From: Actinomycetota bacterium
Lineage (GTDB): Bacteria; Actinomycetota; Geothermincolia; Geothermincolales; RBG-13-55-18
Direction: 5' to 3'
Length of the DNA stretch: 64,000 nucleotides
NCBI GenBank assembly: GCA_040757835.1
Contig: JBFLWJ010000003.1
Coordinates: forward strand, 146,960-210,959
The notes below the pieces were generated by a model. The model saw only the letters and a program-made list of their open reading frames with translations. It did no database searches and had not been told where the DNA came from. This document shows, in pieces, positions 8,728 through 21,581 of the stretch (position 1 is the stretch's first letter; each line of letters opens with the position of its first letter). A program made the translations under genes and the position numbers.

Positions 8728-11406
<2,679 letters not shown>

Positions 11407-11530
11407 TTCTCCTCTTCCACCTGCCGATTGGCACGAAACGCGTGTTCCCATGCATGGTATGAAGCAGCCGCCCCTTTGTCAAACCTCACTGCAGTAATTA
11501 TAGTCGGCTGCGAGAGATCGTGGGGGAGAT

Positions 11531-11559
11531 GGGGTCAGACGGGGTCAGCCCCTGACCCC
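11531..11559. repeat. tandem GGGGTCAG motifs forming a perfect hairpin (GGGGTCAG-CCC-CTGACCCC), related to the MITE termini
   Basis: GGGGTCAGAC GGGGTCAGCCCCTGACCCC in the divergent valS / methyltransferase spacer. Confidence 0.6.
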
Positions 11560-11656
11560 ACTCCCTTTGTCACATGTCGGGGGCCGACCCCGTCGTGGTA
11601 GAATAACCTCCAACAGCGAGCGTTATGGAACGAGGCGAGAAGAAGGGTGTGCTGAT

Positions 11657-12493
11657 ATGCCGGCGAATGCCAGGGAGCATTACAACCACGTGACCGACTC
11701 ATGGAAAGAGTTCATGGGGGACAACCTCCACTTCGGTTATTTCGAGACCGAGGACATGGAGCTGGCACGGGCGACGGACCTGCTCATTGAGAAGCTGCTG
11801 GAGTTGAGCGACATCAACGCGGACAGCCACGTCCTGGATGTGGGGTGTGGTATCGGCAACCCGGCCTTTTACATCTACGATAAGTTAGGCTGCAGCATCG
11901 ACGGCATATCCACCAGCGAGCGCGGCGTCCAGCTTGCCAGCACCACAGCCCGCGAGAGGGGCTACGACGGCGTGAATTTCAGGGTAGCCGACGGGGTGGC
12001 CAACGGGTTCCCGGACGGCAGCTTCGACGTGGTATGGATCATGGAGGCCTCGCACCTCTTCAGGGATAAACGGGCGCTCTTCCGGGAATGCCATCGCGTG
12101 CTAAAAGCCGGCGGCACCTTCGCCCTCTGCGACGTCACCCAGGCAAAGCTCCTGCCCATGCATAAGGGGGTCTGGCACTTCCTCAAGCACCTCCCGGAGT
12201 ATTACCAGCTGATGAAGGCCTTCGGGCCGGCGCAGGTGATTACCCTTGGGGACTATTGCAACCTGCTCATCGAGGCTGGTTTCAACGATGTCACCACCGT
12301 CGATATCTCGCGACAGGCCCTTCCCACCATGACCAGGTGGAAGGAGAACGCCATGCGTTACGCGCGCAGCGGCGGCGATGCTTTCGCGAAGAAGGACGTG
12401 GATATCTTCATCCGCGGCTGCGAGATCGACGAGGCCTTCATGCAGCAGGGCATCTACGGCTACGGCATGGTCCGAGCGGTGAAGAGGGGCTGA
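11657..12493 (+). CDS. class I SAM-dependent methyltransferase (Methyltransf_11-like)
   Basis: VLDVGCGIGNP (motif I), DGSFDVVW, ...LKAGGTFAL. Start assigned to Met (MPANAREHYNH), internal to the longer ORF from 11567. Confidence 0.8.
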   Translation: MPANAREHYNHVTDSWKEFMGDNLHFGYFETEDMELARATDLLIEKLLELSDINADSHVLDVGCGIGNPAFYIYDKLGCSIDGISTSERGVQLASTTARERGYDGVNFRVADGVANGFPDGSFDVVWIMEASHLFRDKRALFRECHRVLKAGGTFALCDVTQAKLLPMHKGVWHFLKHLPEYYQLMKAFGPAQVITLGDYCNLLIEAGFNDVTTVDISRQALPTMTRWKENAMRYARSGGDAFAKKDVDIFIRGCEIDEAFMQQGIYGYGMVRAVKRG

Positions 12494-19253: not shown

Positions 19254-19880
19254 CTACTCCACGATGTAGTGGAGATAGCTGATGGCCGGTTTGGATACGG
19301 GCCGGTAGTCCCCCAGGTCGTGCTGGTAGCGGCAGTCGGTCAGGGGGCCGCAGTCGGACCCGCCCCAGGTGCAGCGCCCACCGCTGATGAGGAAGACCTT
19401 CTCCATGCGGAAATGGCTCTTGCGCCCCAGCTCGGTGTAGCCGGCCATCTTGGTGTTGGGGTCGGTGCCCATGATGGGCGCGGCCAGCCGGGGGACAAGC
19501 CTGCAGTAGAGGGGATTGCGCGCGACCACGTCGGGGACGAGGCGCAGCATGGGGTTCATCAGCTTGAGCAGGAGGGTCGCCTTGTAGTCCACCTCGATGC
19601 GGAGCCGGCCTCTCTCCCCCGTGTCCAGTTCGATGGTCCAGCGGCCGTCCTGACGGCGCGAGGTGATGTCGGTCACCACCTGCTCGTCGGAGCGGTGGAT
19701 GGTCGAGAGGAGGTCCCTGCCCGCCTCGTTGGAGGCGTAGAGGGTGCGGAAGTCGTCGGGGGTGAAGTGCATGAGGGCGCTGTAGGGCCCCACCGGCGTC
19801 TCGTCCCAGTCCTCGAAGAAGAATACGTCGTCCGGGCCGAACTGCATGGTGATGATGAACCAACCCTTCTCAACGATCAT
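19254..19880 (-). CDS. hypothetical protein (208 aa)
   Basis: Long ORF with G+C like its flanks and a start near the tRNA-Pro terminator-like hairpin. No recognisable motifs. Confidence 0.5.
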   Translation of the reverse strand: MIVEKGWFIITMQFGPDDVFFFEDWDETPVGPYSALMHFTPDDFRTLYASNEAGRDLLSTIHRSDEQVVTDITSRRQDGRWTIELDTGERGRLRIEVDYKATLLLKLMNPMLRLVPDVVARNPLYCRLVPRLAAPIMGTDPNTKMAGYTELGRKSHFRMEKVFLISGGRCTWGGSDCGPLTDCRYQHDLGDYRPVSKPAISYLHYIVE

Positions 19881-19955
19881 CTCTTCCCTCCCGCTCCTCT
19901 CAGGCCGCCGGGCATTGATTTATTGAAGGCCGGGCCCATCCCGGCCTTTGTCCCT

Positions 19956-20032
19956 GGTCGGGGTGGGCGGATTTGAACCGCCGACCTCATGCTCCCAAAG
20001 CATGCGCGCTAACCAAGCTGCGCTACACCCCG
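19956..20032 (-). tRNA. tRNA-Pro (anticodon TGG), encoded CCA
   Basis: rc = CGGGGTGTAGCGCAGCTTGGTTAGCGCGCATGCTTTGGGAGCATGAGGTCGGCGGTTCAAATCCGCCCACCCCGACCA; anticodon loop UU-TGG-GA. Confidence 0.9.
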
Positions 20033-20094: not shown

Positions 20095-20170
20095 GCGGGA
20101 GTAGCTCAGATGGAAGAGCGAGAGCCTTCCAAGCTCTAGGTCGCGGGTTCGAGGCCCGTCTCCCGCTCCA
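20095..20170 (+). tRNA. tRNA-Gly (anticodon TCC), encoded CCA; insertion target of a genomic islet
   Basis: GCGGGAGTAGCTCAGATGGAAGAGCGAGAGCCTTCCAAGCTCTAGGTCGCGGGTTCGAGGCCCGTCTCCCGCTCCA; anticodon loop CU-TCC-AA. Confidence 0.9.
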
Positions 20171-20176
20171 TTTTTA

Positions 20177-20590
20177 CTATTTTCTTGTGCTAAAGGAGAC
20201 GTGGGCCTCAGGGCTTCCGTCTATTCTTATTTCCCAACGGTACCTCTTTCCAGGCTCCAGCTTGAGATTGGTGAAATTGAGGGCCTGTTTTACGCTGATT
20301 GGGGAGCCAGGTGGTACATTTGGGGGACGCCCAGCATTGAAATTTCCCTCTACTATTACTGGTGATGAAGGCTCCCCGACCATAACTTTTTCACCATCTT
20401 CAGTTTGCAGCTCGAGTTCAAATCGATGGTCTTGATTCGTCTCTGTCCATCCTACCTTTATATCAACGGCAAGCCCCATATGGTTGATGAGTGCATTACA
20501 TATGTCCCATCCTCCACCAAGGATAAAGAATTTACCTTCCACAACTTCAGCGGCATCACAAAGCATCACCATTATCTCCAATTCAATCAC
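20177..20590 (-). CDS. hypothetical protein, third gene of the islet operon (translationally coupled to antitoxin via ATGA)
   Basis: 137 aa; start overlaps the upstream stop (ATGA at 20587-20590). Beta-rich sequence with no recognisable motif. Confidence 0.5.
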   Translation of the reverse strand: MIELEIMVMLCDAAEVVEGKFFILGGGWDICNALINHMGLAVDIKVGWTETNQDHRFELELQTEDGEKVMVGEPSSPVIVEGNFNAGRPPNVPPGSPISVKQALNFTNLKLEPGKRYRWEIRIDGSPEAHVSFSTRK

Positions 20591-21056
20591 CTCCCCTCCG
20601 TCATGTTGGAGTTGATGCTTATATCCCTAAGCTCTCCTTCGGTACTATCGAAGTTGACTATGGGATCATATTCTGCAGCATTTCCGGAAAAAGCTATGCT
20701 TCTGGTCACAAAGAATCTATACGGCTGGCCATATAGATTCTTGCTAACCAAGTTCTTAAGATCATAGATGCTGCTTTCCTGCTCTTCTATTCTCCTGCAT
20801 AGAATCTCGGCTAGCTTGAACGTTGGTACCTTTTCACTTTTCTTCAATAGCCCCTCTCTTATCATTTCTCTTGCCAAGGTTGACGTTGGCATGTTCATTT
20901 CTCTCGCTTGGTCCACAAGCATCCTCAGCAATTCGGCATCTATTTTCATACTAAACACGGTGGATTTCTCCCTGGCTGGTGCAACCTCCAGCTCGATTCC
21001 TCCAACTTCATCCCAACCTTCTTCAAACATTGTCTCTTCGTCGTCTGCAAACTTCA
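20587..21056 (-). CDS. BrnA-like ribbon-helix-helix antitoxin with ~80-aa C-terminal extension
   Basis: MKFADDEETMFEEGWDEV... then RHH region STVFSMKIDAELLRMLVDQAREMNMPTSTLAREMIREGL. Its ATG overlaps the toxin stop (ATGA 21053-21056). ORF-track start at 21084 is an upstream in-frame TTG. Confidence 0.65.
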
Positions 21057-21319
21057 TTTCTTTACCTCCATTGCGGTGATACAAAACCAGGTACCCTCTT
21101 CCCTGCTATCTGGATTAATGAATATCTTTAGCCTTCTCCCTCCACGAGTCTTCCCAATCACTTTGAAGCGATATCCGTGCTTGTGGCTGAATTCTGGAAT
21201 TATCGTTCTTTCTTCATCCTCAAAAATGACCTGCTCAATCTCTTCGTAATCAATATGGTGTTTCCTCTATAACTTGTCGATAGTGTCAAAAGTCCAGCTC
21301 AACCGTTCTATTCTATAGT
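21053..21319 (-). pseudogene. BrnT-like (DUF497) ribonuclease toxin interrupted by an in-frame amber codon
   Basis: Minus strand: ATG(21319) MVLHYRIERLSWTFDTIDKL-TAG(21257-21259)-RKHHIDYEEIEQVIFEDEERTIIPEFSHKHGYRFKVIGKTRGGRRLKIFINPDSREEGTWFCITAMEVKK-TGA. Matches the BrnT pattern WD..K...N..KHG..FEE...VF.D......R....G......L.V......IRIIS. No start codon downstream of the TAG. Confidence 0.6.
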
Positions 21320-21581
21320 GTAGAACCATCGATTCTCCTATAGTAATACCATAAGTATTACTATTATAGACATGTCTCGGCGCTTCTGCAACTGCTCCAA
21401 GAAAGGAGAAGGAAGTGGGTGAGGCGAGGAAGTCCAATGATGATAGTGAGGTGAACGGGGTGGCTTAGAGATGTGCTATAGACCAGAAGATGTGGTACTC
21501 TCCGGCAAGCTCATGATTATTTACACATCAAATATTAGTGCTACGAAGATGGCCTCCCGCTCCATTTTCTTCTCTCGCTGC

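Follow-up and report, generated by a model that had tools for sequence, protein, structure and literature searches.

The 64-kb stretch of DNA analyzed here (the window) comes from a metagenome-assembled genome (MAG) of an uncultured Actinomycetota lineage. It contains a foreign islet of 1,379 bp that lies between two exact copies of a 15-bp sequence, one of which forms the 3′ end of a tRNA-Gly(TCC) gene. The islet is probably an island that an integrase inserted at the 3′ end of this tRNA gene and that is now non-autonomous, most likely as the remnant of a larger integrase-bearing element. Syntenic relatives have an empty site at this position. The islet carries a single operon of three small genes: a BrnT-like toxin gene broken by a nonsense codon, an antitoxin-like gene, and a gene of the DUF6941 family. 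The same three genes recur, in the same order, in unrelated contexts elsewhere.

The end of tRNA-Gly is duplicated around a foreign islet

The 15-mer CTCCCGCTCCATTTT has two exact copies in the window, at 20160–20174 and 21554–21568, both on the plus strand and in direct orientation. No further copy is found in the window, even when two mismatches are allowed, and none of 100 dinucleotide-preserving shuffles gave two matches. An exact 15-bp direct repeat of the tRNA-Gly end, as reported in the initial annotation, is thus confirmed, with the correction that the right copy had been placed 2 nt too far to the right (21556–21570). The left copy consists of the last 11 nt of tRNA-Gly(TCC), that is, the 3′ strand of the acceptor stem, the discriminator base, and CCA, followed by TTTT. 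Identity between the two junctions ends sharply outside this core, with 4 of 9 bases matching upstream and 3 of 11 downstream. When the 3′ 45 nt of tRNA-Gly were compared with the 10 kb downstream, the longest exact match was 15 nt; for the other five tRNA/tmRNA genes of the window, the same measure gave 9–10 nt. Because the duplication starts exactly at the 3′ strand of the acceptor stem, covers the tRNA end, and is in direct orientation, the tRNA gene is regenerated. A longer tRNA fragment at the right core was also considered and rejected: the 12 nt to its left match the T-arm at only 7 of 12 positions, and the T-loop would be non-canonical.

The features of the locus are as follows (att, attachment site).

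20095–20170, plus strand: tRNA-Gly(TCC), intact, the putative integration target (attB side of attL); predicted by ARAGORN, with a full-length Rfam tRNA match of 64.9 bits
20160–20174, plus strand: left 15-bp core copy (putative attL), an exact repeat
20175–21553, no strand: foreign islet, 1,379 bp, 44.3% GC, identified by composition and by its absence from six syntenic relatives
21392–21553, no strand: right arm of the islet, a non-coding stretch of 162 nt for which six-frame translation gives no meaningful open reading frame (ORF); the GC skew changes sign here
21554–21568, plus strand: right 15-bp core copy (putative attR), an exact repeat formed by the tRNA-Gly 3′ end of the native site, now displaced; the sequence beyond it agrees with the empty sites of loci L004 and L001
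21582–22049, minus strand: native SRPBCC (Polyketide_cyc2) gene, the conserved right neighbor of tRNA-Gly; Pfam E = 1.1e-20, GC content at third codon positions (GC3) 0.87, with orthologues beside tRNA-Gly in relatives

The SRPBCC gene had been described as starting 12 nt past the right repeat. It lies on the minus strand, so it is its stop-codon end that faces the repeat, 13 nt beyond.

The islet differs markedly from its surroundings in composition. Its GC content of 44.3% compares with 64.4 ± 2.3% (minimum 58.4%) for windows of the same size elsewhere, and at 1-kb resolution it is the only low-GC stretch of the 64 kb. Codon usage agrees, with GC3 values of 0.43–0.51 for the three islet genes and 0.87–0.94 for the flanking genes. 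The islet's coding capacity is confined to the minus strand and to one three-gene operon. Pfam searches and six-frame translation reveal no recombinase in either its three small genes or its 162-nt non-coding part, and there is no room for one. Both the relative AT-richness of the interval and its lack of an integrase had been noted in the initial annotation, and both points stand. There is no integrase among the 30 other ORFs of the window either: 29 have Pfam matches, one has none, and all are housekeeping genes, including those for MreBCD, RodA, ClpXP, RF2, FtsEX, and SmpB. An Rfam scan found nothing inside the islet, its matches being the two flanking tRNAs only. No terminal inverted repeats of the islet were found. 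Short repeats shared between its two ends, considered as arm-type sites, occur at chance level only and were dismissed. The 162-nt right arm could possibly be an integrase-binding arm or a deletion scar.

Related genomes have an empty site

Scanning species-representative genomes with the Ham1 protein identified five uncultured Actinomycetota MAGs (71–75% identity) with the same synteny, and the SRPBCC protein, used as a query, brought in two that are closer, L092 (84%) and L093 (81%). Six uncultured Actinomycetota MAG loci were compared with the window: L001–L004, L092, and L093. They share the order tmRNA ... Ham1, SRPBCC, tRNA-Gly, tRNA-Pro ... tRNA-His, -Arg, -Leu, and their tRNA-Gly differs from that of the window by at most one D-loop base over the aligned last ~73 nt of the gene. 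None of the six has the islet's three genes at this locus, which is the finding that would have counted against the initial annotation, and none has a second copy of the tRNA-Gly 3′ end there.

The initial annotation had predicted that tRNA-Gly would be followed directly by the SRPBCC gene in relatives, and this is the case in L002, L004, L092, and L093, where the two are 10–166 nt apart. Specifically, the distance from the SRPBCC end to the tRNA 3′ end is 10 nt in L002, 18 nt in L001 (where the SRPBCC gene is truncated to its last ~60 codons), 50 nt in L093, 84 nt in L004, and 166 nt in L092. The corresponding gap in the window is 1,414 nt; subtracting the islet and one core copy leaves 20 nt, close to the 10–18 nt of L002 and L001. 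With the islet removed, the joined empty site would read ...GTCTCCCGCTCCATTTTcttctc. The sequence at the right core, TTTTcttctc, recurs unchanged behind the tRNA of L004 (ttttcttctc) and with little change behind that of L001 (tttcttctt). Since the right flank matches the post-tRNA sequence of these relatives, the right core is the displaced native tRNA end and the left core closes the regenerated tRNA gene. The empty sites, the displaced native end, and the missing recombinase together support the proposal that the locus has the att signature of a tRNA-targeting integrative element without its integrase.

The site downstream of tRNA-Gly is a variable hotspot in this lineage. In the remaining relative, L003, the gap between the SRPBCC gene and tRNA-Gly measures 774 nt and holds an unrelated gene (11152–11859) for a 235-aa S-adenosylmethionine-dependent methyltransferase-like protein, with a GC3 of 0.69 as against 0.80 for its neighbor; no tRNA-end repeat is found at this insertion. 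On the other side of tRNA-Gly, the orientation of tRNA-Pro(TGG) (window 19955–20032) also varies. The two tRNA genes are divergent in the window, L001, and L093 but share a strand in L002, L003, L004, and L092, which looks like a small inversion carrying the gene and an upstream TATAAT-like box. Beside tRNA-Pro, a minus-strand gene at 19254–19880 encodes a 208-aa protein with no Pfam match that is present in all seven related genomes at 61–92% identity.

The islet carries a translationally coupled three-gene operon

The operon is read from right to left on the minus strand, with the toxin gene first.

21334–21391, minus strand: predicted expression signals of the operon, read from the sequence
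21054–21329, minus strand: BrnT-like toxin pseudogene, 91 codons, identified by translation and a match to BrnT_toxin (PF04365) below the cut-off
20587–21057, minus strand: antitoxin-like gene, 156 aa, with a ribbon-helix-helix/CopG-like N-terminal part and a C-terminal extension of ~80 aa
20177–20590, minus strand: DUF6941 gene, 137 aa, with an immunoglobulin (Ig)-like beta-sandwich; DUF6941 match at E = 9.7e-18

The toxin reading frame is interrupted by an in-frame TAG at 21267–21269, in place of the TGG codon for Trp21. Its best Pfam match is BrnT_toxin, at 26.8 bits, which does not reach the gathering cut-off of 34.5 bits. Four of five module toxins match BrnT_toxin at E ≤ 0.1, with 26.8 bits again the best score, and none is shown to reach the cut-off. 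Sequence searches of the PDB with the toxin, both as a single sequence and as a profile, gave chance-level matches only, with none to a solved BrnT structure. The toxin stop codon overlaps the antitoxin start (ATGA). Family matches of the antitoxin-like protein are weak (CopG_antitoxin, E = 0.065; a PHROG DNA-binding family, 2.8e-4; a CopG-like repressor, 0.017), and it has homologues at 91% and 68% identity. The third gene is translationally coupled, its GTG start overlapping the stop codon of the antitoxin-like gene (GTGA), and it ends with a stop codon only 2 nt away from the left core. AlphaFold modeled the DUF6941 protein with a predicted local distance difference test (pLDDT) score of 97.2 when given an alignment of 105 sequences and 40.6 from the single sequence. 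Fold searches with this model found generic Ig-like beta-sandwich matches only, and a PDB sequence search with the protein returned matches at chance level. For the islet proteins as a set, NCBIfam and PADLOC gave no meaningful matches, and PHROGs gave weak ones only.

The predicted promoter consists of a −35 element TTGCAG (21391–21386), a 17-nt spacer, and a −10 element TATAAT (21368–21363), followed by a Shine–Dalgarno sequence GGAGA at 21338–21334. A scan for consensus promoters did not call TTGCAG-17-TATAAT, and the assignment comes from reading the sequence. A 10-bp inverted repeat, ATAGTAATAC/GTATTACTAT at 21340–21349 and 21355–21364, with its arms 5 nt apart, overlaps the −10 element, and the promoter looks autoregulated. 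From the sub-threshold family matches and the gene layout, we infer that the operon had a toxin-antitoxin function. The initial annotation had described a three-gene operon of the toxin-antitoxin type; the family matches fall below thresholds, and the toxin gene is a pseudogene.

The three-gene module recurs in other contexts

Another metagenome holds a copy of the islet DNA on the 892-nt contig L083 (k141_2079649, sample ERZ27256988), which ends inside the element. It is 91.7% identical to window positions 20460–21350 and has TGG where the window has TAG. Since L083 keeps the tryptophan codon, the toxin gene of the window is a recent nonsense pseudogene. The ratio of nonsynonymous to synonymous substitution rates (dN/dS) between the window and L083 is 0.19 for the toxin, 0.11 for the antitoxin, and 0.13 for the available part of DUF6941, with dS values of 0.19–0.36; the cargo is a real module under selection. 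Polarized changes on the window lineage show no bias from AT toward GC (7 versus 6), and both copies have a GC content of ~42%–43%. In the absence of such drift, most of the divergence between window and L083 predates residence in the GC-rich genome.

A more distant pair of genes is found in L081 (8676–10342; also in L082), ~1 kb downstream of tRNA-Ser(GGA), where an otherwise GC-rich genome has a patch of low GC content. The two proteins have 72% and 68% amino acid identity to those of the islet, and the promoter layout is similar, with GGTAATAC motifs. In the toxin gene of L081, the Trp codon replaced by TAG in the window reads TGA, and the frame contains another stop as well; the antitoxin is cut short at 113 aa, DUF6941 is absent, and there is no att repeat around the remnant. 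This pair is a further-decayed remnant, and the two knock-outs at the same toxin codon are independent events.

An exhaustive search gave 1,211 DUF6941 representatives, the closest of them 45–51% identical to the islet protein; a word-indexed homologue search with the same protein returned only that of the window itself. Some DUF6941 genes are found without the toxin/antitoxin pair. The same three genes, in the same order and with 35–55% amino acid identity, occur in L094 (933–2095), where they adjoin GmrSD, Ea47, and DUF6338 genes, and in the IMG/VR contig L100 (5843–6913), where they adjoin a methyltransferase-endonuclease fusion. DUF6941 is 42–55% identical between the module contexts. Because the gene set and order are the same in L094 and L100, the DUF6941 gene is a recurrent partner of the toxin/antitoxin pair rather than a random passenger. 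A tyrosine integrase (Phage_integrase, E = 1.7e-24) is encoded 3.5 kb from the module of L100, which is cargo of an integrase-bearing, tRNA-linked element. The integrase gene (10397–11560) is followed within a few bases by a 5′ fragment of tRNA-Arg(ACG) whose identity stops after the anticodon loop. This junction is an att site of the less common 5′-fragment type.

Other searches for copies were negative. An antitoxin-profile scan of Joint Genome Institute (JGI) metagenome and IMG/VR contigs gave no further copy. A degenerate DNA pattern for WFCITAME had eight matches in metagenomes, each a chance occurrence of the motif by itself, and matched no viral contig. IMG/VR contains no exact counterpart of the reconstructed attP junction, and neither the islet DNA nor the DUF6941 protein has a match in phage and plasmid collections. 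With DUF6941 unmentioned in the searched literature and no meaningful PADLOC or NCBIfam matches, the module of a BrnT-like toxin, a ribbon-helix-helix protein, and DUF6941 appears to be undescribed. It may represent a three-component toxin-antitoxin or defence module.

How did the islet arise?

In the sequence of events that we infer, a tyrosine-integrase-type reaction would have recombined an attP site borne by the element with the extreme 3′ end of tRNA-Gly(TCC), with the crossover inside the 15-bp segment of identity (acceptor-stem 3′ strand, discriminator, CCA, and TTTT). The tRNA gene would have been rebuilt at the left junction, leaving its displaced 3′ end at the right junction beside native downstream DNA. 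Most likely, a single internal deletion then removed the integrase side of the element, which would originally have been a larger island or prophage targeting the tRNA. What is left would be a cargo module that formerly lay against the far att site, with the cargo end at the tRNA. As an operon complete in itself, with a promoter and an operator, this cargo would encode an RNase toxin of the BrnT-like kind, a repressor resembling ribbon-helix-helix antitoxins, and DUF6941; the TGG-to-TAG change has since knocked out the toxin. Having neither a recombinase nor an excisionase, the islet cannot move by itself. An origin by internal deletion is favored because the module of L100 is such a cargo, because L081 provides decayed relatives near tRNAs, and because addiction-type modules resist loss.

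Several points weigh against this history. Within the 64 kb of the genome searched, no integrase that would recognize the core was identified. The islet was not found a second time with its ends, so that no independent insertion corroborates its boundaries or the proposed deletion, and no gene fragments or other scars of a deletion are visible. The cargo stop codon lies so near the core that one att arm would have to lie in coding sequence. Flanking proteins of the nearest relatives are only ~79–92% identical, making fine dating of the insertion impossible. In addition, the window belongs to a MAG, with junctions known from the assembly alone, and neither the toxin nor the antitoxin reaches the curated threshold in its family match.

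In a second account, the islet was never bigger. It would be an att cassette that is minimal by nature and lacks autonomy, integrated and excised as such when a different element that targets tRNA-Gly provides the integrase in trans. Among integrase-dependent elements it would correspond to a miniature inverted-repeat transposable element (MITE) or an integron cassette. The clean layout favors such a cassette, with one complete module under its own promoter, no truncated genes, a stop codon 2 nt from the core, and a 162-nt arm. So does the divergence from L083, with a dS of 0.19–0.36 under purifying selection; together with the even count of polarized changes (7 versus 6) and the GC content of ~42%–43%, this suggests a pool that diversified outside the high-GC host, followed by recent arrival. 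However, no second copy with ends emerged from the JGI profile and motif scans, the IMG/VR scans, or the phage and plasmid searches, and the sole integrase-linked module, that of L100, is cargo in a larger element. Moreover, lambda-type integrases normally need arms on both sides of the core, and here the left arm is wholly coding. On balance, a cassette of this kind is rather improbable. It is less probable still that the islet is a cassette moved in trans by tRNA-Gly-specific integrases whose sole cargo is an undescribed three-component toxin-antitoxin/defence module with DUF6941 as an obligatory third partner.

There is little to recommend an insertion without any site-specific recombinase, whether by illegitimate or microhomology-driven recombination or by a transposon-like duplication of a 15-bp target, with the position at the tRNA end a coincidence. 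The lack of a recombinase, the absence of arm-type repeats above chance, and the restriction of identity to 15 bp are compatible with such an event. Nonetheless, a duplication that regenerates the tRNA is the standard signature of islands in tRNA genes (tDNAs) (PMC4383910), the islet has no terminal inverted repeats, and homologous modules lie in or near tRNA-linked elements (L100 and L081). We consider this route very unlikely. Excision by an integrase is predicted to give the circular junction GGC-CTCCCGCTCCATTTT-TAC. A target duplication of 15 bp is unusually long for a transposase. The least credible account is an assembly artefact, in which a low-GC fragment of another organism was joined into the MAG contig at a short shared sequence. 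The metagenomic source is consistent with an artefact, as is the fact that, outside the window, islet DNA was met only on an 892-nt contig of a different sample. However, host sequence is collinear on both sides within a 327-kb contig, and a chimeric join would not yield an exact duplication of the tRNA end together with the native right flank. An overlap of 15 bp is shorter than assembler k-mers. An artefact is therefore extremely improbable, and an integrase-inserted island that lost its integrase remains the favored origin.

What are the implications of the islet and its module?

The islet is an example, resolved to the single nucleotide, of how little a tRNA-associated island can consist of: one module and two 15-bp att cores. 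It comes from an uncultured Actinomycetota lineage whose mobile elements have barely been described, and programs that accept an island only when it has an integrase would miss it. It is in keeping with the idea of addiction-type modules that outlast the rest of an integrative element and are then disarmed, here by a nonsense mutation in the toxin gene. The DUF6941 family comprises more than 1,200 representative clusters and is not mentioned in the literature searched. Its conservation as the third gene of this toxin-antitoxin-like operon, in three contexts that are unrelated and of the mobile or defence-island kind, provides a testable functional handle on the family.

Comparison with known systems

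Tyrosine integrases target tDNAs, and a regenerated target together with a displaced fragment marks the ends of the resulting islands (PMC4383910). Like the tDNA islands found by Islander (PMC4383910), the islet is bounded by an intact tRNA gene on one side and by a displaced, directly oriented 3′ fragment of that tRNA on the other, and it has a foreign composition and an empty site in relatives. Its 15-bp repeat is at the low end of the 15–221 bp reported for direct repeats of tDNA islands (bioRxiv 10.1101/2020.11.02.365908). The repeat covers the acceptor-stem/CCA end only and not the T-loop or anticodon loop, and so corresponds to the asymmetric 3′-end, one of three sublocations of tDNA-targeting integrases summarized in the same preprint. 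The difference from Islander islands is the missing integrase gene, for which Islander filters would reject the islet; it has every other feature that they look for. It is also smaller, at 1.4 kb, than the smallest integrase-bearing island of a Klebsiella survey, at 3.5 kb (bioRxiv 10.1101/2020.11.02.365908).

A cis-mobilizable element (CIME), in the definition given in PMC5704250, no longer has genes for integration and transfer and has kept attL and attR. Such elements derive from integrative and conjugative elements (ICEs) or integrative and mobilizable elements (IMEs), such as the ICESt1 family of Streptococcus thermophilus (Pavlovic et al. 2004, as summarized in PMC5704250). The islet fits this definition, with attL and attR (two exact cores) and no genes for integration or transfer. 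By analogy, it would be expected to move only if a related element integrated alongside it or supplied the integrase. Described CIMEs are much larger than the islet. The islet also differs from them in its host, an uncultured Actinomycetota MAG, and in that no related ICE or IME is known for this lineage, so that its derivation by decay is presumed. The integrase-bearing L100 is a different element at a different tRNA, and neither a scar nor a related parent was found for the islet.

The operon resembles BrnT/BrnA, as summarized in PMC5086665, in having a small toxin gene first and an overlapping gene for a putative ribbon-helix-helix-type antitoxin, and BrnT_toxin is the best Pfam match of its toxin. 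The palindrome over the −10 box would likewise be consistent with autorepression by a toxin-antitoxin complex, on the BrnT/BrnA pattern described in PMC5086665. The islet operon differs in the sub-threshold score of its toxin (26.8 versus 34.5 bits), the ~80-aa C-terminal extension of its antitoxin, the inactivation of its toxin gene, and the presence of a third, translationally coupled gene, DUF6941. Three-component toxin-antitoxin systems include the toxin-antitoxin-chaperone (TAC) modules, which have a SecB-like chaperone. As in TAC modules, three tightly coupled small genes are kept as a unit across unrelated mobile contexts; in contrast to them, the third protein is an Ig-like beta-sandwich rather than a SecB-like chaperone, and DUF6941 also occurs alone. 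MITEs and other transposons are a poorer likeness, given that the islet has no terminal inverted repeats and that its 15-bp duplication coincides with the end of a tRNA. Because the islet has all the Islander features except the integrase, fits the definition of a CIME, and measures 1.4 kb against 3.5 kb for the smallest island of the Klebsiella survey, it is an unusually small tDNA island of a known type. The conserved DUF6941 module is the more novel lead.

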